From a virus (taxonomy: Duplodnaviria; Heunggongvirae; Uroviricota; Caudoviricetes), in IMG/VR virus record IMGVR_UViG_2609459769_000010: a stretch of 20,229 bases of DNA, one strand, 5' to 3'. Each line of letters begins with the position of its first letter. Positions within the stretch are counted from its first letter, which is position 1. Both the position numbers and the translations under genes were made by a program. The notes under the pieces are model-generated. The model had not been told where the DNA came from. It was given only the letters and a program-made list of their open reading frames with translations, and did no database searches. Below are positions 1 to 17,869 of this stretch, in pieces.

Positions 1-930
1 ATGAAGATATCTCTTGTAGTTCCTGTCTTCAATGAAGAAGAAGCGATACCAATTTTTTATAAAACGGTACGTGAATTCGAAGAATTGAAGTCATATGAAG
101 TGGAAATTGTTTTCATAAATGACGGCAGCAAAGACGCTACGGAGTCAATTATTAATGCTCTGGCTGTTTCAGATCCTCTAGTTGTTCCGCTGTCATTTAC
201 ACGCAACTTTGGTAAAGAACCAGCATTGTTTGCAGGGTTAGACCATGCAACTGGCGATGCCGTGATTCCAATTGATGTTGACCTGCAAGACCCGATTGAG
301 GTTATTCCTCATCTTATTGAAAAGTGGCAGGCAGGTGCTGATATGGTACTTGCTAAGCGCTCTGACCGTTCTACAGATGGAAGACTGAAGCGCAAGACTG
401 CTGAGTGGTTCTATAAACTTCACAACAAAATAAGCAACCCAAAAATTGAGGAGAACGTCGGAGATTTCCGACTAATGTCTCGAGGAGTTGTGGAAAACAT
501 TAAATTATTACCAGAACGCAACCTGTTCATGAAAGGAGTATTAAGCTGGGTTGGTGGTCGTACAGATGTTGTTGAATATGCTCGCGCTGAGCGCGTTGCA
601 GGAACAACTAAATTTAATGGGTGGAAATTATGGAACCTGGCTCTGGAGGGTATCACTAGCTTCTCTACATTTCCTCTGCGTATGTGGACTTACATCGGTC
701 TTTTTGTTGCCGGTTTGGCATTCATTTATGGTGCATGGATGATTTTAGATAAGCTGATATTTGGAAATGATGTTCCTGGGTATCCATCAATTATTGTGTC
801 TATACTATTTTTAGGTGGTGTGCAGCTTATAGGGATCGGTGTGCTTGGAGAATACATAGGAAGAATATATATTGAGTCAAAAAACAGACCAAGGTATCTT
901 TTAAAGGAAAATGACTGTGAAAAAAAGTAA
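1..930 (+). CDS. gtrB: Bactoprenol glucosyltransferase GtrB (GT2 family, O-antigen glucosylation/seroconversion)
   Basis: 309-aa ORF starting at window position 1. Translation recalled as near-identical to E. coli K-12 YfdH/GtrB and Shigella phage GtrB ([17 protein letters not shown]..., DGSKD, C-terminal TM helices). gtrA would lie just upstream, outside the window. Confidence 0.93.
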
Positions 931-2686
931 TTTAATTATAATATCAGCATTAGCTATAGTATATTGCTTGCCAATTATTCTTGGCACATCATATTATTAT
1001 GATGATCTTTTCCGAGCCTATTCAGGCTATAGCTCATGGAGTTCAGATGGAAGACCGTTTGCTAATACCTTTTATCAAATACTGACCTTTGGTCAAATGA
1101 TGCCTGATACGTTTCCACTTGCACTTATAGTATCAATTTTTATTTTTGCATATATCGGGAGCAAGCTTGGTAGTTTCTATGGTAAGATTAATTCATACAC
1201 TTACTGTTTTGCCTATACAACGATTATAATGTCACCATTATTTATATCTAATTTATTATTTAGATATGACTCTGCATTTATGATGCTTGCTATATCGGCC
1301 TGCATTGTTCCATACGTAGTTACTTTAGATAAAAAAATAAATATAGCTTTCGGCACTTTGGCTGTTATTTTTTCATTTGGACTTTATCAAGCAGCAGTTA
1401 GTATTTTTATTGCTTTTGCTGGTATAGAGCTATTTATAAATAGTTGTTTTCATGATGCAAAAAAAACCATTAAAAACTGCCTCATTAGAATAATGCAACT
1501 AGCTGTGGCTTATGTTATTTACTCAAAAATCATACTTGGATTTTTTGTAATTAACGACTATTTCAAAGAATTTAACAAACCTATATCACTAAGTGCAGAT
1601 GGTATATCGCGGTTAATGGCAAACATATCATCTTCTATGCATAACATAATATTGATGTTGAATTCTGGATTCTTAATAGCTGTAACTCCAATAATATGTT
1701 ACTCCCTTTTTTGTATTGTAAAGCACTCTATAACCAACAAGAAACCATATTCTATAATTGGTTTTATTCTGGCATTGGTTGCTTTATCTATTGCAGTTCC
1801 GGGTATAGCGATATTTGGTGAGAAGCCAATTTTCTATCCAAGAATTTATATTGGTGTTGGTGCATGTCTTTTCTTCATATGCTTCATACCAGTTATGTTG
1901 AATGGGAATAAGAAGATAACTATTGCTGTGCAATTTATTTTCATTTTTTATCTATTTGGCATGATTAACGCAACAAGCAATGCGGTTAGATCTGACGTTG
2001 AGTTTCAAAAAGCAACGTCTCAGAGAATTATAAACATAATTGATAGCAGTTACCTTTCAATTAATCATAAAGTTGTTATTCTTGGTCAACTTCGCCAGTC
2101 TCCATTATCATACATCAACTCATTATCATATCCATTGATTAACATATTGTCGCCGCAGCACTTTATCAATGGTTATGACGGTGGTCGATTCGTACTTATG
2201 CATGAGGGGCTTGACAATATTGAATATCCGGATATTCAAGAGCAAAGCAAATACAGAGATGCAATTAAAAATTCAAAACCAATATTCTCAAACAATATTT
2301 TTTCAATATATAACATTAATTCAACTACGGTCATATCTTTTGAGAATACATTATATGACGAAGCGAATAATAAGATGATACCATATACATTTAAGAGTAA
2401 CATGGTAAGTAATGCTCATTACGGTGATAAGTATTTCTATGCTTGCATTTCAAATACAGTATCCCCTACTCTTAAAAGAAACGAGTGGTACTATCTACTT
2501 ATTCACAATAAAGATGGTTCAGTCATTAACAGAAATTTTTTCGCTCCTTATTCAATGCATAATGACGAAAGTACATGCGTTAACACTCAATGGAAGGAAC
2601 CTGTTTCGTTAGAAGATATAAACTCAATTGAGTTTGGAATTTACAACATAGAAACAATGCAAAGGCGGTTAGATCTAGGCTCATAA
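911..2686 (+). CDS. GtrC-type serotype-specific O-antigen glycosyltransferase, polytopic membrane protein with long hydrophilic C-terminal domain
   Basis: 591-aa ORF overlapping the gtrB stop by 20 nt, with AAGGAAA RBS. N-terminal ~370 aa are very hydrophobic (multiple TM helices); C-terminal ~220 aa are hydrophilic. Strongly AT-rich compared with the rest of the window. Sits where the third gtr gene is found in P22/SfX-type conversion modules. Confidence 0.6.
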
Positions 2687-2690
2687 TTTT

Positions 2691-2714
2691 AAGGCCTCTG
2701 TTGAGGCCTTTTTA
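2691..2714 (+). terminator. Rho-independent terminator of the gtr operon
   Basis: AAGGCCTC-TGTT-GAGGCCTT hairpin followed by TTTT, 5 nt after the gtrC stop. Confidence 0.6.
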
Positions 2715-2893
2715 CGTAATATTTAAATTCCTATACATTCCGTTACCATACCACGCTTGATCTGGATGCCATGGTTTCAGCGCATATGAATTCGTCTATA
2801 TTTATTAAAAATTTCTCTGGATATGCGGTAGATAGTGCTATTTATTCACATAATAAAATAAGAATAGATTTACTCGTATATAACTATGTTTGA

Positions 2894-2931
2894 TAGAATT
2901 AAGAAAACGGCTCCCTGTAGTGGAAGCCGTT
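2894..2931 (-). terminator. Possible terminator downstream of tailspike
   Basis: AACGGCT / AGCCGTT 7-bp stem (12-nt loop) followed on the - strand by TTTCTTAATTCT. About 80 nt past the tailspike stop. Confidence 0.3.
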
Positions 2932-3007
2932 ATAGTGCTGCAGTTTAAAGACAGATCAACCAATCCTTAACTGATCGGCATTGCCGGATGACCGGGCTTT
3001 TACATTT

Positions 3008-5212
3008 TTAGAATGCTTTCAATGTAGAGGCTTCTGAACCAGCACAGGTAAGAACTATCTTGTAGTACCCGGTTTTAGCCCCCCCTGAAACTCCTGACCA
3101 GTCAAAATTTAACTGCAATATAGCTCCGTTTTCATTTGGCGCACCGTAATTAACACTAGGTGCCCCTGGAGTAGAGATATCGAACATTGGCATATTTGCC
3201 GCCACTGAGTTTGCATTATACGAGTTGGTATTTCTGGCATCATTTCCTTGAGATGCAGTGATTACAGGCCATTCACCACCCAGAGCACTCTTTTGTACCA
3301 CCTCTATCGTTGCAGGTCCATTTCTCAACAACACTCCCTCGTAATACACATTTCCATGCGTACCACCGGTTCCATGTATTTGTATAGTGGCGAATCCGCA
3401 ATCAGCATAGTTGACTGATGGATCGAACGTCTGATGATACATATCAGATGGCAATGGCATAACAACTGCTGATAGTGTTGCTGGGGATGGCATTGATGTT
3501 CCTGTCCCAGTATTCATTGCAGGAACCCTGAGCTTTATTGATTCGGCTTTTCCACGAATGTTGCTGTATCCATCACCATGTGTATTGATCATATGAACAG
3601 GCCTAACAATTACTCCTTGAATAAACGCATTGCCATCAGCTATTTTTGCGAATGTAATTGTTTTCCATCCTCGACCAATCAATTGTCCGGCGTGCTTTAC
3701 CATTCCTGTGCTATTGCCGCCTCTATTACGAAGTGGCCATCCATATTGTTTTCCTTGATAACTTAGATTGCTACTAACTGGATAATTCAAATCGTAGTAT
3801 GGTGGCTTCGTTCCTGTGTAATTCTCAACTGGATGCTGAACCAGCATGCTTAAAACAACATCATCCCAACTGCCAATAACATCTATCTCAGCAGCTTCTG
3901 CATCAAGATAAAAGCTGTACGACATTACTGCGCTACCAGTTATCGGGAACTGTCCAGTTATTCGTTGTTGAGTATATGCAGCTCGATCAAAGACAATATT
4001 GAAATTGTTAGTAGGCAAGGCCATGCCAAAATGATCAGACATCATAGTGGGCCACATCATGATTTCTGATGATATTGGTTTGTACGATGGAGAAAGACCG
4101 CCAGCCATTAACATTGATGCGATTGCCTCACCCATTCGCTGATACCCCAATGAGTTAAAGTGGGTGCCGTCGCTTTGCACTACACCCTGTGGCATGTTGA
4201 ACTGAAGCTCGCCAAGGTTAATATGTGCGCAGTTATATAGTGTGGCTAAGTTTTTGACCTGAAATGCATATGACTGTTGGTAGTTAGCCAAGTTAAAATT
4301 GTACATACTAAAACTACCTGACGCAGTTTGACAAACAAGAACACCCATCCCCCAATCAATAAAGCGACGTATCAATTTTTCCATATACTCAAGGTACTCA
4401 TTGATGTCGCCCTCATTTGCATCGTTAATCGCATACATTAAAATTGCCAAGTCGCAATTAGGGTTTGTTTGCCAGTCAGGATTCTCATAGGCATTTTTTG
4501 CCGTGAAGCCTGAAATTGCCCTTACAGTTATTGATGTTGGCGCCCCTGATTGTTCCTCAAGATATGATCCAAGACGAACAGGATACGTAACTGTGGCATG
4601 AGTTGCGTTATCAGGGCTTCCTTCAACAATATCTGTTGATGAAATATCATATCCAGCAGTTATTGAATCTCCCTGACAAAGAATTTTTAATGGACTTCTT
4701 GATTTAATCAGGTAGTTTACATTAAGTAACATCCTTATATTTCTTGAACCATAGTTAGCAGAATCATTAGCAATATTACCTTTCGCATTATCATCAAGGG
4801 CTTCCTGAATCGTCTCTCCACTAACAGTGCCAATCATTCCTGCCCCAGTGCTTGATGTTAGTCTTTGTTCTAACTGATCGGGATCATACTTCAGCACATT
4901 TGGAAAATAGAACTGCTGCACACCGTACGCATCATAAACAGCCATAGAATGGCCTTGCACAGTTACGAATTTGGCAATCTGTCCGTTATATACCGGATAT
5001 CCGGCAGCATTTATAACGATTGGTTGTGACACTTGAACATGAGTGCCGTCTTCTCGTTCCAGATATACTGGAATCTGGTTTTCAGGATTTACCGGATCAG
5101 TGTCAATTTTACCGATATAAATTTTTCCATTGGCTACGGCTTTAAAAGAACGAGCCATAGTGAAGAGTTGCGAAGGCATCGATACGATCACATTGGCTGT
5201 AATGTCTGTCAT
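3008..5212 (-). CDS. Tailspike protein: P22 gp9-like N-terminal head-binding domain fused to SGNH/GDSL esterase domain and C-terminal beta-rich domain
   Basis: 734-aa ORF with GGAG RBS. First ~115 aa ([41 protein letters not shown]...VLKYDPDQ) match the P22 tailspike head-binding domain as recalled. Downstream carries SGNH hydrolase blocks: GDSIT (aa 181-185), INDAN (GxND-like), DGTHF (DxxH). Confidence 0.85.
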
Positions 5213-9757: not shown

Positions 9758-10602
9758 TGCTCCGCGATTATCTTGATGGTTGTGGCAGTAAACGCCGCAC
9801 CATTTGACTGAATGGTTAACGTGCTGCCATTTGTGGCAAGAAAGCCGTCTTTATCCACGCTGAAGAACGTAGCTAACAAGATGTTATCGGTTGTTGTCGC
9901 CGAGTTGCGACTGCTTACCAGTGTGTCAGGAACAGAACCGGAAAATGTTAGTTGCATTGACCTGTTGGCGGTTCCACTGGGCCACGTCCCGACAATCGAC
10001 AACTTGAAGAACAAGGTTTTGTTCTCGTTGAACACAACCATCTTGTTGTTAACGGTGTCGAAGAATGGTGCCAACGTGCCGGATGACGGCGTGAGCGTTT
10101 TCAGTAGGCTAACAAGGTTGGTCGGCGCTGTCGGAATGGTTACTGATACGCCAGAGTAAACAACCTCTGACTTCTTGCGCGTGGTTGCATACTCCAGAGC
10201 ATCAATGCGCGATTCATGATCTGAAACCTGCGACTCCAGCGACTGAACTCTTGTGTCAAGCGACGCAATATCGCTTTCATTCTGAGCTATTCGTGTTTCA
10301 TGTTCCTGAAGAGTTGATTCTGCCTGGCTGATTCGCTCCTCATGATTAACAAGCGTTGCTTCCGCAGCAGAAATTCGCTGCTCATGGTCAGCGAGAATCA
10401 CATCCTGCTCATCGTTCCTGACCTGTGCATCATAAGCGCCTTGTCCGGCCTCGTTGGCCTTGTTCGCCACATTACCAACATCAGCACCCTGTGCAATAAC
10501 GTAAAGCAGATACGACTGCGAGAAGATATTGCGTGGAAGGATTGATGTATCGAGCCGCGTCGCCTGAACAATAACAGGTGTATTGAGATTCGAATCCGCC
10601 AT
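9754..10602 (-). CDS. Tail needle protein (P22 gp26-like) with C-terminal knob domain
   Basis: 282 aa. N-terminus [43 protein letters not shown]...[18 protein letters not shown] matches the P22 gp26 N-terminus as recalled. Followed by a trimeric coiled-coil segment with a 14-aa periodic HExRI repeat, then a ~140-aa C-terminal domain (Sf6-type knob architecture). Confidence 0.85.
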
Positions 10603-12024
10603 TACTCAATCCTTATCTGAGCGCCAGACAGAGTGACAGGTGACTTCGTGATAACGCGCAATTTGAAGCCAACATTTTTCCTGATGCGCCCTACCCGCTT
10701 CCACAAAACGCGTTTGTCGTAAACGAACGGTTCATTCTGCTCAATCATCTGCTCACGCCCGTAATTGATGCCGTCAGTGGTTGCAGAGAGAAAAAGGCGG
10801 TCAGCATACTGCGCAACTCCAGTTGAAGATTCAACCTCAAGGTCGAACACCCGGGCGTTATCCGCTTTGAACAACGGAGTAAACAGCAGGTGTTCCTGTT
10901 GAAGCCCATACTGGCTGCTGATATCGAACTGCAATTTCCCGGTCACCGATTCCAGCTTATCGCCGCACGTTATTTGATTGCCTTCGTAAATGAAGTCGAT
11001 AGCGCGGTACACATCGTCATACAGGCCTGTTTTCAACACACACCATTGCGGACCATTGGCGCTTGAAGATGCGTCGTATACGAGGACATGGCGCGGAAGA
11101 TGGATAATCAGCAACTCATGCGCATCAAACCGCAACGATTCCATCACACCATCAGCCAGTTCATCAGCAGTGTAGGAGCGGAGGATTTTCTCAATGCTCG
11201 CGCTGGCGATTGGTGACACCTGACCGGAGCCGATGATGTATACAGATGGCGCACCCGTTGCCGGATTGCTGATGAACGCATACGAATCAGCAAACGGCGT
11301 TTTGCAGTAAGTCCCGGCGATGCCTTTTTGCACCATCAGTGATGGCTGTGCGACATACAAAGCAGCACCAACGGTGGTTGCGCCAGTCAGGGAGAAATAT
11401 TCAATAGTCGATGAACCAAAGCAGACGATGAAGTCTCGCCATGTCCCGATACCGATGATGCCGTCCGGCTGAGACTCGGCACGATATTGTGCGCTGTAAC
11501 GGTCAGGATGCGATTCGTCTTCAAGGTCAGTGATAAACCATGAATCAGTGCCGTCTTTTGACCACGCATAACGCCCACGTAAGCGCGTAATGTCACGAAC
11601 CGAACCTAACTCATACTGAGTGAATCCGCTGTCTGTAGGCCAGTTTGAGACTGTTTTAACCGTGCCATCATAGCGATACTCGACCAGTTGACCATTAACA
11701 CCTACCGCCTGTGATGTCCGACCATGCGCCATTGATACACGACCACTTCCGGCAACATCACCGACTTCACTTTCTCCTTTGTACAGCTTGCCGCCACACA
11801 CGCGATAAACAGCACTCTGCGCCATGTTGTACTCAACTCCGCGCGATACGCCGTTCACATCAGAACGTTTGGCAATGCCCGGGAATGAGCGAAGATAGTC
11901 TGTAAACACCAACAAGGCGCTCTGCGAACGCCCTGTTATTTGCTGCGGCTACCACTAATCCCTCAGGTGAATCAGGGTGTCGAATCTCTTCTTTTTCCTG
12001 GTATTTCTTACGACGTTTTGTCAT
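10602..12024 (-). pseudogene. P22 gp10-like tail hub/head-completion gene, reading frame interrupted (two frames)
   Basis: The 437-aa gp10-like frame (10602..11915) has no ATG; an in-frame TAG lies at 11949-11951. A strong AGGAG RBS plus ATG at 12024 opens a second frame (MTKRRKKYQEKEEIRHPDSPEGL...) that stops at 11860, overlapping the first. Span from 12024 to the gp10-like stop is ~473 codons, close to the P22 gp10 length (~472 aa, recalled). Frameshifted gene, sequencing indel or deletion fusion are all possible. Confidence 0.5.
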
Positions 12025-12058
12025 AATTACTCCTGTGGATTGATCCAGTCTTTCTACA

Positions 12059-12337
12059 TCAGGCCTCAAAACTGTTGCAGCAGTCTTGAGGCTTTTCTTT
12101 TGTCAGCACCATGGCTACTTTCTTTGCCAGCTCCGCTAATTCCTCGTCTTCAACACCCCACTCCAGCACAGCCAGAAGCATGGCCATCTTTGGGATAAAG
12201 CTGTCTTTCCATCGCGAAATTTGCGATTCATTAATCCCTAACGCGTCGGCAACCTTTCGCTGACCACGTACAGCAATTCGATTCAGGATGTTGCTTGTAA
12301 TTGCATTCGCTTTCTTGCGAGTACTTGTAAGTTGCAT
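12059..12337 (-). CDS. cII: Transcriptional activator CII
   Basis: 92-aa product (MQLTSTRKK...SQISRWK...MLLAVLEWGV) aligns with lambda CII (QISRWK, MLLAVLEWGV). The 5' leader ...TTATCTAAGGAAATACTTACATATG is essentially the lambda cII leader. Confidence 0.85.
   Translation of the reverse strand: MQLTSTRKKANAITSNILNRIAVRGQRKVADALGINESQISRWKDSFIPKMAMLLAVLEWGVEDEELAELAKKVAMVLTKEKPQDCCNSFEA
12291..12330 (+). promoter_or_regulatory. Candidate CII-dependent promoter (pRE-like) TTGC-N6-TTGC motifs
   Basis: On the + strand inside the 5' end of cII: TTGCTTGTAATTGC (perfect TTGC-N6-TTGC) and TTGCGAGTACTTGT. Lambda pRE sits in the same place and orientation. Confidence 0.3.
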
Positions 12338-12416
12338 ATGTAAGTATTTCCTTAGATAACAATTGATTGAATGTATGCAAATAAATGCATACACCATAGG
12401 TGTGGTTTAACTTGAT

Positions 12417-12727: not shown

Positions 12728-12783
12728 ACAAAAAATACATCTTGTGCATGGATGATTTTAGTACAGAGCGTAATAATAAGGGT

Positions 12784-13443
12784 ATGAAAATGAAATGGTA
12801 TGAACTGGCTAGATCCAGAATGAAAGAGCTCGGCATAACTCAAGAGAAGTTAGCTGAAGAGCTTGGTATGACGCAGGGTGGAATTGGTCACTGGTTGCGC
12901 GGATCTCGTCATCCATCTCTTGACGAGATTGGTGTGGTGTTTAAATACCTTGGTATTGATAACGTCTCATTCAACCACGACGGTACATTTTCACCTGTTG
13001 GCGAATACTCATCTGCCCCCGTTAAAAAACAATATGAGTACCCTGTTTTTTCTCATGTTCAGGCCGGGATGTTCTCGCCTGAGCTTAGAACCTTTACCAA
13101 AGGTGATGCGGAGAGATGGGTCAGCACAACCAAAAAAGCCAGTGATTGTGCGTTCTGGCTTGAAGTTGAAGGTAATTCCATGACCGCGCCAACAGGATCC
13201 AAGCCAAGCTTTCCTGACGGGATGTTAATTCTCGTTGACCCTGAGCAGGCTGTTGAGCCAGGTGATTTCTGCATAGCCAGACTTGGTGGTGACGAGTTTA
13301 CCTTCAAGAAACTGATCAGGGATAGCGGTCAGGTGTTCCTACAGCCACTAAACCCGCAATATCCAATGATTCCATGCAATGATAGCTGTTTCGTAGTAGG
13401 GAAAGTTATCGCCAGCCAGTGGCCTGAAGAGACATTTAGTTAA
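12784..13443 (+). CDS. cI: CI repressor (S24 peptidase/LexA-like C-terminal domain; distinct N-terminal HTH domain)
   Basis: C-terminal ~130 aa ([115 protein letters not shown]...) nearly identical to lambda CI as recalled. N-terminal ~90 aa HTH domain is unlike lambda CI. Start chosen at ATG 12784 (MKMKWYEL...); the upstream TTG/ATG at 12742/12748 are alternatives. Confidence 0.85.
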
Positions 13444-13777: not shown

Positions 13778-14104
13778 ATGGATGCACAAACACGCCGCCG
13801 CGAACGTCGCGCAGAGAAACAGGCTCAATGGAAAGCAGCAAATCCCCTGTTGGTTGGGGTAAGCGCAAAACCAGTTAACCGCCCTATTCTCTCGCTGAAT
13901 CGCAAACCGAAATCACGAGTAGAAAGCGCACTGAATCCGATAGACCTTACGGTGCTGGCTGAATACCACGAACAGATTGAAAGCAACCTGCAACGTATTG
14001 AGCGCAAGAATCAGCGCACATGGTACAGCAAGCCACGCAGTGAAATGGGGGTGACTTGTGTTGGTCGCCAGAAAATGAAATTAGGCAGCAAACCACTTAT
14101 TTGA
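13778..14104 (+). CDS. N: Antitermination protein N
   Basis: 108-aa product MDAQTRRRERRAEKQAQWKAANPLLVGVSAKPVNRPILSLNRKPKSRVESALNPIDLTVLAEYH..., near-identical to lambda N over most of its length. AGGAG RBS. Confidence 0.9.
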   Translation: MDAQTRRRERRAEKQAQWKAANPLLVGVSAKPVNRPILSLNRKPKSRVESALNPIDLTVLAEYHEQIESNLQRIERKNQRTWYSKPRSEMGVTCVGRQKMKLGSKPLI

Positions 14105-14114
14105 GGACTGATAC

Positions 14115-14357
14115 ATGAGAGTAAAAACTATGGGCGCAAGCCCATTAAGTGGTCGTATTTTTCAAGGAACATTAAACACTGAAAAAGGAATGTGGGTAGG
14201 AAAGAGAGAAGATGTCACCGATCAGGCAGTGAGGGCAGTAGCCGAACACATGATGATAAAAGACCAGAAATATGCATACGAAACGAAGGATGGCAAATGG
14301 CTGATAATAAGTCATCAACTGGTTGATAAATTACCAGAAGAGTTTGTTGATGGTTAA
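14115..14357 (+). CDS. Hypothetical protein (80 aa), early-left cargo gene
   Basis: ORF with GAGGA RBS directly after N. AT-rich. No recognisable motif. Confidence 0.5.
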   Translation: MRVKTMGASPLSGRIFQGTLNTEKGMWVGKREDVTDQAVRAVAEHMMIKDQKYAYETKDGKWLIISHQLVDKLPEEFVDG

Positions 14358-14414
14358 ATTTGCTTTGGAATAAGCAACAGAATAAACACTGCACTGAATT
14401 ATTTGAGGTGAGAT

Positions 14415-14885
14415 ATGACAAAATCATGGAGCGTACCTTTTCCTGAATCAGAAACTGAACATGATGGAATGCCTGTTTTCTGGAGATTCCAAGCGACAGT
14501 TGAAGAAGATGGAATCAAAATATTCGCACTTCAATATATAGCTTTTCATCAGACAGAGCATTATGCATGGTTGGTTCCTGCGCATTGGATTGTTGATTTT
14601 AAACCAGCACCAAATCAGTGGTTACAGGAATGGAAACAAAGGAGAAATAGATATGCAATTAAGAAAGTAGCAAAAAAGGCAGAAAGATCTTTTGCGTTCC
14701 CGACGAAGAAACTTGCCATTGAAAGTTTATTGCGCCGGAAGAAATACCATTTGATGAGAATCAAACAAGATTTGGCTGTTGTATCAACTCTTGTTGATGG
14801 GATGAAGAATATTGATACATCAACACCAGATATTGAATATAACTTTGGACACAACCAAGAAACAGAAAATTGGGTATTTTATTAG
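14415..14885 (+). CDS. Hypothetical protein (156 aa), early-left cargo gene
   Basis: ORF with GAGGTGAGAT RBS. AT-rich, basic Lys/Arg-rich central segment. Followed by a strong terminator. No recognisable motif. Confidence 0.55.
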   Translation: MTKSWSVPFPESETEHDGMPVFWRFQATVEEDGIKIFALQYIAFHQTEHYAWLVPAHWIVDFKPAPNQWLQEWKQRRNRYAIKKVAKKAERSFAFPTKKLAIESLLRRKKYHLMRIKQDLAVVSTLVDGMKNIDTSTPDIEYNFGHNQETENWVFY

Positions 14886-14989
14886 TACGAATAAGCACTG
14901 TGTATTCATTCCAACGAGTGAATACACGGAGCAATGTCGCTCGTAACTAAACAGGAGCCGACTTGTTCTGATTATTGGAAATCTTCTTT

Positions 14990-15017
14990 GCCCTCCAATG
15001 TGAGGGCAGTTTTTTTT
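14990..15017 (+). terminator. Rho-independent terminator (tL-like)
   Basis: GCCCTC-CAATGT-GAGGGC hairpin followed by AGTTTTTTTT. Confidence 0.65.
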
Positions 15018-15030
15018 GACGGAGTAAACG

Positions 15031-15279
15031 ATGATAAAAACTGATTACCCTGCAGAGCTTAAACAAAAAGTAATAACAGCAATTAAATGCTCTTTTATCT
15101 CATGTCGTACAGATGAAGAACGATATGTCGTTGAGTGTGCAATTGTCGAGTTTCTCACAGCGATGGAATTTACCGCTGCAGAATCAATAGATGTATTAAA
15201 GCAATCAGACGGAAATGATATTGAAACGGATGATGTTATTGACCGACTAATAAAATCATTCGAAGAAGAAATAGAGTAG
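15031..15279 (+). CDS. Small acidic hypothetical protein (82 aa)
   Basis: ORF with GGAG RBS. Highly acidic (many D/E, C-terminus EEEIE). Sits just upstream of the cIII-like gene. Confidence 0.5.
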   Translation: MIKTDYPAELKQKVITAIKCSFISCRTDEERYVVECAIVEFLTAMEFTAAESIDVLKQSDGNDIETDDVIDRLIKSFEEEIE

Positions 15280-15362
15280 CCGCCTGAGCGCGGCTTTACC
15301 GCATACCAATAATGCTTCACGAGAGGCATTTTCGTTATGCAATCAAATATAAGGAGTTACCC

Positions 15363-15497
15363 ATGATGCACTTTCAGCTCGCGGGTAGCGGCGTCATGTC
15401 CGCTTTCTACCCGCACGAATCTGAATTATCACGCCGAGTTAAACAATTAATCAGAGCAGCAAAGAAACAACTGGAGGCGTTATGCGCAATGAAATAG
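15363..15497 (+). CDS. cIII: CIII-like protease (FtsH) inhibitor
   Basis: 44-aa product MMHFQLAGSGVMSAFYPHESELSRRVKQLIRAAKKQLEAL... resembles lambda CIII (AIAGWPVAG...PSESLLERITRKLRDGWKRLIDIL). AAGGAG RBS. Position between N and kil. Confidence 0.55.
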   Translation: MMHFQLAGSGVMSAFYPHESELSRRVKQLIRAAKKQLEALCAMK

Positions 15498-15634
15498 CCA
15501 TCAATCACCAGATGCTTCGTGCTGCACAAAACAAAGCAGTAATAGCCAGATTTATTGGTGATTCCAAAATGTGGCTTGAAGCAAATAAAGCGATGAAATC
15601 AGCTATCAACCTTCCGTGGTATCGCAGGAAATGA
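15482..15634 (+). CDS. kil: Kil-like host-killing (FtsZ-inhibiting) protein
   Basis: 50-aa ORF overlapping the cIII-like 3' end (below the ORF-track size cutoff): MRNEIAINHQMLRAAQNKAVIARFIGDSKMW... The IA.FIGD.KM motif and the position immediately after cIII fit lambda Kil as recalled. Confidence 0.45.
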   Translation: MRNEIAINHQMLRAAQNKAVIARFIGDSKMWLEANKAMKSAINLPWYRRK

Positions 15635-15709
15635 GTTTTACAGATAACTGGTCAGACGAAGAATTCATTCGTCAGATGAAAGATTTAATCGGTAACGAAG
15701 GAGATATTC

Positions 15710-15880
15710 ATGCCACTTGCAACCACAGTGAAGGAGAGCAAGTTACAGAGACGCATGTACACGCAGCAGGCGTTAATGTATCGCAAGAAGGGAGATCGTG
15801 AAGGTGTTCGCGTATTTTTAAATGCGGCAAAGACCGAAGTATTAAACCAGCGTTATTTCCTTGGGCCATGTCCATTCTGA
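15710..15880 (+). CDS. Small basic protein (56 aa) immediately upstream of the annealing-protein gene (position analogous to P22 arf)
   Basis: ATG preceded by AAGGAG at 7-nt spacing; product MPLATTVKESKLQRRMYTQQALMYRKKGDREGVRVFLNAAKTEVLNQRYFLGPCPF. An overlapping alternative frame (15631..15801) starts as ATGA coupled to the kil stop; which one is translated cannot be resolved by eye. Confidence 0.3.
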   Translation: MPLATTVKESKLQRRMYTQQALMYRKKGDREGVRVFLNAAKTEVLNQRYFLGPCPF

Positions 15881-15888
15881 GGTGAATT

Positions 15889-16596
15889 ATGGATTTGAAC
15901 AAATTCGATGAGCCATTCAGCCCTGAAGATATCGAATGGCGAATACAGCAAAGCGGTAAAACACGCGATGGAAAGGTGTGGGCTATGGTGCTGGCTTATG
16001 TCACGAACAGAGCAATCATGAAACGCCTGGACGATGTTTGCGGCAAAGCAGGATGGCGCAATGAATACCGCGATATTCCCAACAACGGAGGCGTTGAATG
16101 CGGCATATCAATCAGGATTGATTCCGAATGGGTAACCAAATGGGATGCTGCTGAAAACACGCAGGTAGAAGCCGTCAAAGGTGGTCGTTCAGGTGCAATG
16201 AAGCGTGCTGCCGTTCAGTGGGGAATCGGTCGGTATCTGTATAACCTTGAGGAAGGTTTCGCACAAACATCTCTCGATAAAAAGCAGGGATGGCACAGGG
16301 CAAAACTCAAGGATGGAACAGGATTTTACTGGCTCCCTCCATCGCTGCCGGGATGGGCAATCCCAGCATCAGATAACAAACCATCACCAGAAAATACCAA
16401 CCAGAAATCTCCATCGGTTGACTGCGAGCAAATCCTGAAAGACTTCAGCGATTATGCATCAACAGAAACTGACAAGAAAAAACTCATCGAGCGTTATCAG
16501 CGTGACTGGCAATTAATGGCTGGCAACGAGGAGGCGCAGGCTAAATGCGTCCAGGTAATGAACATCAGAGTTAACGAACTAAAACAGGCGGCATAA
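15889..16596 (+). CDS. Rad52/Sak-type single-strand annealing protein (phage recombinase)
   Basis: 235 aa with GAGGTG RBS. Conserved core ...AMVLAYVTNRAIMKRLDDVCGKAGW...AMKRAAVQWGIGRYLYNL... typical of phage Rad52/22-family annealing proteins. Sits directly upstream of ssb. Confidence 0.75.
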   Translation: MDLNKFDEPFSPEDIEWRIQQSGKTRDGKVWAMVLAYVTNRAIMKRLDDVCGKAGWRNEYRDIPNNGGVECGISIRIDSEWVTKWDAAENTQVEAVKGGRSGAMKRAAVQWGIGRYLYNLEEGFAQTSLDKKQGWHRAKLKDGTGFYWLPPSLPGWAIPASDNKPSPENTNQKSPSVDCEQILKDFSDYASTETDKKKLIERYQRDWQLMAGNEEAQAKCVQVMNIRVNELKQAA

Positions 16597-17070
16597 ATGG
16601 GAAGTAGAGGCGTAAATAAGGTGATCATTATTGGTCGCCTTGGGCATGATCCAGAAATCAGATATTCACCATCAGGAACGGCATTTGCAAACCTTACAGT
16701 TGCTACGTCAGAACAATGGCGTGATAAGCAAACTGGAGAGCAAAAGGAGCAGACGGAGTGGCACCGTGTGGTAATGAGCGGGAAACTGGCAGAAATTGCC
16801 AGCGAATATCTGCGAAAAGGCTCTGAGGTTTATCTTGAAGGCAAATTGCGGACAAGAAAATGGCAGGATCAAAGCGGACAGGATCGGTTCACTACCGAAG
16901 TTATCGTGGGCGTTGGTGGAACCATGCAAATGCTTGGTGGCAAGCAAGGAGGCAATGAACAGTCTTCACCTCAGCGAAATAACGGCCAGCAACAAAGACA
17001 GCAATCTCAGCAGCATGGGAATCACAGCGAACCACCTATGAACTTCGACGATTCGGATATTCCGTTCTAG
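16597..17070 (+). CDS. ssb: Single-stranded DNA-binding protein
   Basis: 157 aa. OB-fold N-terminus ([36 protein letters not shown]...TEWHRVV), Gly/Gln-rich linker and acidic C-terminal tail DDSDIPF. Confidence 0.92.
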
Positions 17071-17079
17071 GAGCTGAAT

Positions 17080-17559
17080 ATGAAAATCTGCTCAAGATGC
17101 CATCAACAGAAGGAAGAAAGGGACTTTCAAATCAGAAGAGCATCCAGAGATGGATTAACTGCCGCTTGCCGGGCTTGCCTGGCTGAATACGACAAAGAAC
17201 GCGCTGGATTGCCACATCGAGTATCAGCAAGGAGAGAATATCAATCATCGGAACGCGGAAGAGAACGGTGTAACGCAGCCAAAAAGCGGTTCATTCAGAG
17301 CAACCCATGGAAAAGAAAAGCGCACATCATTGTGGGTAATTTTTTGCGCGACGGTAAGCTAATCCGACCACCACAATGTGAGTGCTGCGGATCAGAATGT
17401 AAACCACAGGCGCACCACTGCGACTACAGCAAACCAACCGATGTGATGTGGCTCTGCAAGTCATGTCATGTCGAGTGGCACAAACATAACAAACCTATCT
17501 ACCCAGACGAGGAACCAGTAACTCTCCCCTTCCCTCGTCACGCTATTCACGCAATTTAA
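17080..17559 (+). CDS. Cys-rich zinc-finger / HNH-like endonuclease family protein
   Basis: 159 aa with AGGAG RBS. CxxC...CxxC at the N-terminus and C-terminal CECCGSEC...AHHCDY...WLCKSCHVEWH (His-Asn-His-like metal-binding motif). Confidence 0.5.
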   Translation: MKICSRCHQQKEERDFQIRRASRDGLTAACRACLAEYDKERAGLPHRVSARREYQSSERGRERCNAAKKRFIQSNPWKRKAHIIVGNFLRDGKLIRPPQCECCGSECKPQAHHCDYSKPTDVMWLCKSCHVEWHKHNKPIYPDEEPVTLPFPRHAIHAI

Positions 17560-17572
17560 TCAGGAGAAAACC

Positions 17573-17869
17573 ATGCCAGCGCCTCTGTATGGTGCGGACG
17601 ACGCACGCCGCTGTTCCGGCAATTCCGTATCGGAGGTGCTGGATAAATTCAGAAAAAACTACGACCTGATAATGTCTCTACCGCAGGAAACGAAAGAGGA
17701 AAAGGAATTTCGCTATTGTATATGGCTTGCAGAGAAAGAAGAACGCGAGCGAATTTACCAGACATCAATCCGACCATTCCGCAAAGCCACATATACCCAC
17801 TTCCCTGAATATATCGACCCGCGCCTGCGTAATTACCGCTCACGCTATGGCGCTATCAGTAATGACTGA
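17573..17869 (+). CDS. Hypothetical protein (98 aa)
   Basis: ORF with AGGAG RBS. Tightly packed in the early-left operon. Confidence 0.5.
   Translation: MPAPLYGADDARRCSGNSVSEVLDKFRKNYDLIMSLPQETKEEKEFRYCIWLAEKEERERIYQTSIRPFRKATYTHFPEYIDPRLRNYRSRYGAISND

Follow-up and report, generated by a model that had tools for sequence, protein, structure and literature searches.

What does a small, strongly acidic protein encoded immediately upstream of cIII contribute to a lambdoid phage? This question is raised by ORF82, an open reading frame of 82 codons in a 20,229-nucleotide stretch of viral DNA (IMG/VR record IMGVR_UViG_2609459769_000010; hereafter, the window). The initial annotation of this stretch described a small, strongly acidic early protein encoded before cIII in the early-left operon, compared its position with that of lambda ral, and proposed that it could act as a DNA mimic or an anti-restriction factor. 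The description was borne out by our analysis, in which the product is 82 amino acids long, has a net charge of -11 and a pI of 4.27, and is encoded at that position in the operon. The proposed function is considered below, together with the genomic setting of the gene, its family, and its predicted structure.

ORF82 and its protein family

The ORF82 product (MIKTDYPAELKQKVITAIKCSFISCRTDEERYVVECAIVEFLTAMEFTAAESIDVLKQSDGNDIETDDVIDRLIKSFEEEIE) contains 20 acidic residues (D/E; 24% of the sequence) versus 9 basic residues (K/R) and ends in EEEIE. The GC content of the gene is 34.9%, compared with 44.6% for the window. ORF82 is a real gene, not a chance ORF, based on its identical copies in phages HK446, Kapi1, and ECP1 (Table 1), on homologs that keep its length and helix pattern, and on a confidently predicted structure (pLDDT 90.7).

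Table 1. Coordinates of features in the window and at the loci compared with it
Feature	Source	Position	Strand	Details
cI-like repressor	Window	12742-13443	+	
N	Window	13778-14104	+	
orf80	Window	14115-14357	+	80-aa DUF7446 protein
orf156	Window	14415-14885	+	156-aa protein, phrog_1636
Intrinsic terminator, tL2A type, strong	Window	14988-15017	+	Stem TTGCCCTC/GAGGGCAG at 14988-15009, then T8; terminator scan
Shine-Dalgarno GGAG	Window	15019-15022	+	8 nt 5' of ATG; read from sequence
ORF82	Window	15031-15279	+	ATG start, 82 codons plus stop; PHROG 14587; protein 100% identical to HK446 gp36, Kapi1_017, and ECP1_057
Cassette right edge and spacer to cIII	Window	15278-15330	+	Hairpin scan
cIII	Window	15363-15497	+	Pfam PF08134, E 2e-30; conserved 3' neighbor of ORF82
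kil	Window	15482-15634	+	Pfam PF06301
gp33-like protein	Window	15631-15801	+	56 aa, net charge -9; 91% identical to HK446 gp33
Rad52/Erf-like annealase	Window	15889-16596	+	
SSB	Window	16597-17070	+	
Abc2	Window	17573-17866	+	98% identical
Slot allele: ORF82	Window	15025-15277		Net charge -11
Slot allele: ea10	mEpX2 (L040)	2137-2505		DUF2528, Pfam PF10800; 122 aa, net charge -14
Slot allele: gene 17	P22 (L045)	863-1174		Pfam PF17420; 103 aa, net charge -17
Slot allele: gene 33	Sf6 and HK544	2630-3598 (Sf6 copy, L039)		322 aa
phrog_8760	L003	4264-4455		Bas77_0046
phrog_8760	L006	3781-3960		
phrog_8760	L037	3107-3334		

ORF82 DNA is present in 58 of 5,426 complete E. coli genomes (~1%), on the chromosome every time, and the exact protein sequence occurs on at least 1,000 contigs. 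We used phmmer to search 1.84 billion representatives exhaustively, and this search identified 17 family representatives at 50% identity; a profile search of 5.8 billion entries identified 52 clusters at 90% identity, with members ranging from 72 to 122 aa. None of the 52 clusters had a Pfam domain; wherever a name was assigned, it was “hypothetical.” Members occur exclusively in phages and prophages hosted by Enterobacterales (Escherichia, Salmonella, Pantoea, and Citrobacter); the carriers include many phages of Salmonella and Escherichia that serve as model systems or in biocontrol. Homologs with 30-68% aa identity keep the length and the helix pattern of ORF82. Within a 15-sequence alignment, A17 and C25 are invariant, E40 is nearly so, and hydrophobic positions show helical periodicity.

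Searches of Pfam, NCBIfam, and PADLOC with ORF82 returned no significant match. A match to DUF366 was rejected as noise (E 0.017; 15 bits vs a cut-off of 29.9). A lead to the colicin E7 immunity protein Im7, in which residues 45-78 of ORF82 aligned weakly to Im7 residues 8-42, was also rejected: the single-sequence phmmer hit (E 0.23) was non-collinear and disappeared with the family profile, and there was no Pfam hit, including to PF01320. The colicin DNase immunity proteins Im7 and Im9, which are stoichiometric nuclease inhibitors, resemble ORF82 in general form (~85 aa, four helices, pI ~4.4). The ORF82 family is already a PHROG but has no Pfam entry, and it is not related to any of the anti-restriction or DNA-mimic families described so far.

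Based on the 15-sequence alignment, AlphaFold2 predicted a compact four-helix bundle (pLDDT 90.7, pTM 0.79), with alpha-helices at residues 7-21, 28-44, 49-58, and 64-81; this model superseded the one predicted from the single sequence (pLDDT 59). Foldseek alignment of the model to the PDB identified nothing at E ≤0.001, and the matches were generic helical bundles. A search of BFVD identified only the protein’s own family.

Acidity is a trait of the whole family: among the full-length sequences aligned, pI values range from 4.05 to 4.31 and net charges from -7 to -17. The initial annotation had emphasized clusters of D and E together with the C-terminal EEEIE; the acidity does extend across the family, whereas EEEIE itself is not conserved, most homologs stopping at about residue 79. 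Conserved acidic columns occur at D5, E9, E30, E40, 49-51, D54, D63, E65, D67, D68, D71, and E79, and when the alignment is combined with the helix positions, the conserved acidic residues cluster on helices 3 and 4. Both of these helices are amphipathic, with most acidic residues ≥90 degrees off the hydrophobic face. ORF82 is also dipolar, as residues 1-27 include 2 acidic and 5 basic residues, whereas residues 49-82 include 12 acidic and 3 basic residues. The N-terminal helix is mildly basic, and strong, conserved acidity marks the C-terminal half (helix 3, loop, and helix 4).

With this composition, ORF82 falls within the range used to recognize DNA mimics, namely, small acidic proteins with a pI of 3-5 and at least ~20% D/E. 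The DNA mimics T7 Ocr, ArdA, T4 Arn, T7 gp5.9, and lambda Gam are likewise small, early proteins with similar D/E content and pI and with acidic residues on exposed helix faces; however, they share no sequence or fold match with ORF82. More generally, no match to ORF82, by sequence or by fold, was identified among solved anti-restriction or DNA-mimic proteins. Charge alone is weakly specific, because acidity is common in this operon: the gp33-like protein has a net charge of -9, and two neighbors of the ORF82 homolog in a P22-like phage (L037) have net charges of -12 and -18.

The slot upstream of cIII

On the plus strand of the window, genes encoding a cI-like repressor, N, orf80, and orf156 are followed by a terminator and then by ORF82, cIII, and kil. 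Homology with phages Sf6, HK544, and mEpX2 ends at 15015-15024, just past the tL2A/bsq4 terminator, and for mEpX2 it picks up again precisely at 15278, within the stop codon of ORF82. Based on these exact boundaries and the low GC content, ORF82 is a precise, swappable, low-GC accessory cassette. Its left edge is the terminator at 14988-15017, and the same sequence in Sf6 is annotated as both “terminator, tL2A” and “bsq4 boundary sequence.” At its right edge, a GC-rich hairpin (15278-15295) overlaps the ORF82 stop, and a weak terminator-like hairpin follows at 15311-15330. In the synteny table, cIII is ≥98% identical (mostly 100%) in all loci with near-identical ORF82.

Four alleles of this slot were compared (Table 1), and three of them (ORF82, Ea10, and gp17) encode small, strongly acidic proteins, with net charges of -11, -14, and -17, respectively. 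This pattern suggests that the slot 5' of cIII is a hotspot for one functional class. On the lambda map, ea10 occupies the same slot just 5' of cIII. The Pfam family of P22 gp17 (PF17420) is named “superinfection exclusion gene product 17.” Like ORF82, P22 gp17 and lambda Ea10 are small, strongly acidic, and non-essential, and they are encoded in the same slot directly 5' of cIII or c3, with a spacer of ~85 bp; however, their sequences are unrelated to that of ORF82, making them positional analogs rather than homologs. Homology of ORF82 to gp17 or Ea10 was rejected (hhalign probability of 0.1% for gp17; no Pfam or PHROG cross-hits). With its unrelated alleles, and with small, strongly acidic products from ea10, gene 17, and ORF82, the slot offers a compact place to seek counter-defense genes of lambdoid phages.

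The placement of ORF82 in the lambda ral region by the initial annotation did not hold. In Sf6 and HK544, ral lies 5' of tL2A, whereas ORF82 lies 3' of tL2A, in the slot of ea10, gene 17, and gene 33. Because the true ral is 5' of the terminator in these phages and because no Ral homolog was found anywhere in the window, ORF82 corresponds in position to ea10 and gene 17 rather than to ral. The ral-equivalent position in the window, from N to the tL2 terminator (14115-14885), is occupied by two low-GC genes (37-40%) that encode the 80-aa DUF7446 protein and the 156-aa phrog_1636 protein. At another locus (L008), a DUF7446 homolog lies directly 5' of the ORF82 homolog.

In temperate phages, ORF82 homologs were always located in the cI-proximal leftward operon. 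Distant homologs (37-47% aa identity) occur at differing positions within the leftward early operons of these phages, one of them between an N-like gene and recT/exo and others between erf-ssb and xis-int. Homologs also occur in virulent Skatevirus-like siphoviruses, including Bas77 (42% aa identity to ORF82), LPST10, 64795_sal3, and metagenomic relatives. In these phages, the homolog opens a short operon and precedes a small ORF and a gene for a ParB-HTH protein, with Bas77 adding genes for a C5 methylase and RusA. ORF82 therefore belongs to a mobile set of accessory early genes that temperate and virulent phages alike carry, and the homologs in virulent phages argue against a lysogeny-specific role. 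In phage 6947, the ORF82 homolog is replaced by an unrelated gene encoding 207 aa, for which our searches gave no known function.

A second small acidic family, phrog_8760, with the N-terminal motif MSYCRFRNT, adjoins ORF82 homologs or lies near them (Table 1). This 63-aa acidic protein is encoded in a virulent Skatevirus and in two temperate phages, contexts that are otherwise dissimilar, and it is absent from the window. Our search for a conserved partner gene found that, beyond phrog_8760, the neighbors of ORF82 homologs are mutually unrelated. In the P22-like phage (L037), the early-left region 5' of the ORF82 homolog (3107-3850) also specifies two further small, highly acidic proteins, one of 75 aa ending in DDEEYDDEDGDD (net charge -18) and one of 59 aa ending in DDDDDD (net charge -12).

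Overall, the window appears to be a P22/Sf6-like prophage that has undergone deletion or rearrangement. On the minus strand, a head-closure gene similar to P22 gp10 (10602-11915) matches its profile only from position 41 onward, with the N-terminus missing, and it lies ~150 bp from a cII-like gene (12059-12397, minus strand). The usual replication, nin, lysis, terminase, portal, and coat genes are absent between these two genes, and the arrangement at 10602-12400 marks a prophage that is defective or else a join made during assembly. At 17080-17559, the window encodes a 159-aa Cys-rich protein that matches a PHROG “endonuclease” family (E 3e-47), with no Pfam match; its first 70 residues match a PHROG labeled “Lar-like restriction alleviation protein” weakly (E 7.5e-7). 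HK446 gp33, the close relative of the gp33-like protein in the window, is reported in a preprint to trigger the P2 OLD abortive-infection tRNase and is hypothesized there to manipulate RecBCD (10.64898/2026.07.10.737580). No homolog of the OLD inhibitor Oad2 (gp27) was found in the window.

Candidate functions of ORF82

The copy of ORF82 in a Kapi1 lysogen is unexpressed, as are kil and cIII (PMC12922286). A protein that is small, conservedly acidic, early, swappable, and silent in the lysogen has the profile of an inhibitor involved in host takeover or counter-defense. We tentatively prefer the reading that ORF82 is a delayed-early stoichiometric inhibitor, with its conserved acidic face directed against a basic surface of a host or prophage protein. 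If it proves to be a counter-defense inhibitor, ORF82 would join a known class of small acidic early inhibitors.

Under this preferred reading, the early-left operon carries ORF82 as a dispensable accessory gene. Because a tL2-type terminator lies 5' of the gene, expression would, by analogy with lambda, occur only after N antitermination; N-mediated readthrough of this terminator would result in delayed-early synthesis, and the gene would be silent in the lysogen. The acidic face may then dock on a basic surface, one that probably binds nucleic acid, on a protein of the host or of a resident prophage. The putative target would be a defense, exclusion, or DNA-processing protein that otherwise hinders phage development, and it is unlikely to be a restriction enzyme of the classical types I, II, or III. 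Such a design would be akin to that of other small acidic inhibitors, namely, colicin immunity proteins and DNA-mimic anti-defense proteins.

A broader proposal, which we consider doubtful, is that ORF82 founds an unrecognized counter-defense family of acidic four-helix inhibitors, directed at an Enterobacterales defense or prophage-exclusion system outside those tested. The family would move as a cassette between temperate (lambdoid or P22-like) and virulent (Skatevirus-like) phages, at times accompanied by phrog_8760. Identification of the target would add the family to the small inhibitors as a new one and would probably point to the defense or exclusion system that it counters. It counts against the preferred inhibitor reading that Bas77 has no standout phenotype when challenged with RexAB, PifA, Fun/Z, Old, or six restriction systems. 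As described in the text of the preprint, a screen of an HK446 library for OLD inhibitors recovered gp27, with no mention there of gp36 (bioRxiv 10.64898/2026.07.10.737580).

ORF82 could instead be a DNA mimic, similar to Gam or gp5.9, that inhibits or modulates a host protein of DNA repair, recombination, or the nucleoid, such as RecBCD, H-NS, or another DNA end-binding factor, and that aids the adjacent recombination module; we regard this as unlikely. Such a role would be consistent with the conserved acidic surface of ORF82, with the Erf/Rad52-like, SSB, and Abc2 genes of its operon, and with the ParB-HTH neighbor in Skatevirus-like phages, joined in Bas77 by the methylase and RusA. However, Abc2 and a gp33-like protein (the proposed RecBCD manipulator) are already among the products of the phage, and no fold similarity to Gam or gp5.9 appeared among the matches listed. 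The OLD toxicity assays described in the preprint text covered gp33, Erf, gp31, and Abc2, with gp36 unmentioned (10.64898/2026.07.10.737580).

A partnership with cIII and kil, in which ORF82 would modulate the lysis-lysogeny decision or host physiology (FtsH, CII stability, or cell division), is quite unlikely. A constant block of ORF82, cIII, and kil, with 98-100% identity, recurs in ~30 prophage loci of E. coli, despite variation in the upstream N, cI, and intervening genes, and this pattern fits a regulatory role; a homolog with 67% aa identity is likewise located directly 5' of a P22-type c3. However, the virulent Skatevirus-like phages carry homologs without cIII, and some temperate homologs are far from cIII, near xis-int or beside recT-exo. 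In addition, unrelated genes fill the slot in phages that have the same cIII-kil.

The anti-restriction label

The PHROG 14587 profile, labeled “anti-restriction protein,” aligned to ORF82 over its full length (1-82 of 82; E 2.2e-48). As a profile match, this result indicates membership in the cluster, not the labeled function. Among the deposits examined, only that of ECP1 uses such a name (“antirestriction protein ral”); the other original deposits examined, UniProt, and PGAP use “hypothetical,” and RefSeq and pharokka-style records repeat the anti-restriction label. The label looks to be positional in origin and then propagated. Our search for an experimental or homology basis for the PHROG 14587 label found none; in the literature searched, the protein is mentioned only as “putative.” We found no literature treating HK446 gp36, Kapi1_017, or ECP1_057 functionally, and none of the sequence motifs searched for was found in the accessible supplement text of the accessory-gene screen by Silas et al.

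ORF82 was rejected as a homolog of Ral based on BLASTP (E 16), hhalign (probability of 0.1%), and the Pfam Ral family PF11058, to which it had no hit at E ≤1; lambda Ral, used as a positive control for PF11058, matched with E 1.6e-48. Lambda Ral, whose family is represented in lambda, P22, and Sf6, shares with ORF82 its small size, its non-essentiality, and its location between N and cIII in the early-left operon. The two proteins differ in character, however, as Ral is basic (pI 8.8, net charge +3) and Cys-rich, whereas ORF82 is acidic, and their genes lie on opposite sides of tL2A.

We obtained efficiencies of plating for Bas77 from the raw BASEL data. Bas77 has one EcoKI site and plated on EcoKI with an efficiency of 0.04-0.1; it has two EcoCFT_I sites, and the corresponding efficiency was 6e-4 to 1e-3. 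Efficiencies were lower with EcoRI and EcoPI (1e-5 to 5e-5 for each), EcoCFT_II (1e-6 to 7.5e-6), and EcoRV (about 1e-7 to 2e-6). Phages Bas78-80 gave the same plating values as Bas77 on the six type I-III systems, and TBLASTN identified no match to ORF82 in Bas78-80; all eight Escherichia records that matched were other phages. The BASEL authors describe the Bas77 group as “markedly sensitive to RM systems.” These data argue against strong anti-restriction activity of the ORF82 homolog, although they concern the homolog rather than ORF82 itself and may be compatible with a mild, Ral-like effect or with action on other enzymes.

We consider it decidedly unlikely that ORF82 modulates type I enzymes as Ral does or mimics DNA in the manner of Ocr or ArdA to block type I restriction-modification or BREX. 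The PHROG 14587 label and the ECP1 “ral” name point in this direction, as do the early position of ORF82, the C5 DNA methylase in the Bas77 operon, and a composition (24% D/E, pI 4.27) near that computed for T7 Ocr (29% D/E, pI 4.05). These points are set against the null comparisons with Ral, the location in the ea10/gene 17 slot, the lack of any match to solved anti-restriction proteins, and the finding that Bas77, with a homolog, plates like Bas78-80, without one. The analogy with Ral and anti-restriction proteins made at the outset was not upheld, given the dissimilarity to Ral, the position outside the ral slot, the absence of a match to known anti-restriction proteins, and the restriction of Bas77. 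The anti-restriction/Ral label thus has no support, and the plating data for the Bas77 homolog contradict it indirectly. Pharokka/PHROG annotation spreads this unsupported label, and its correction avoids false inferences about the fate of phages under restriction.

That ORF82 is a chance ORF or a decaying, functionless gene is extremely improbable and, judged by sequence conservation, effectively refuted: it has no Pfam family and is silent in the lysogen, but it has a good ribosome-binding site and a confidently predicted fold, its length, helix pattern, A17, C25, and E40 are kept down to ~30% identity, and the cassette edges coincide with the gene, which has spread across several phage lineages and genera. 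A 94-aa antisense ORF on the minus strand (15045-15329) lies almost wholly inside ORF82; it shows no gene-like signs and probably arises from the low GC content of the sequence.
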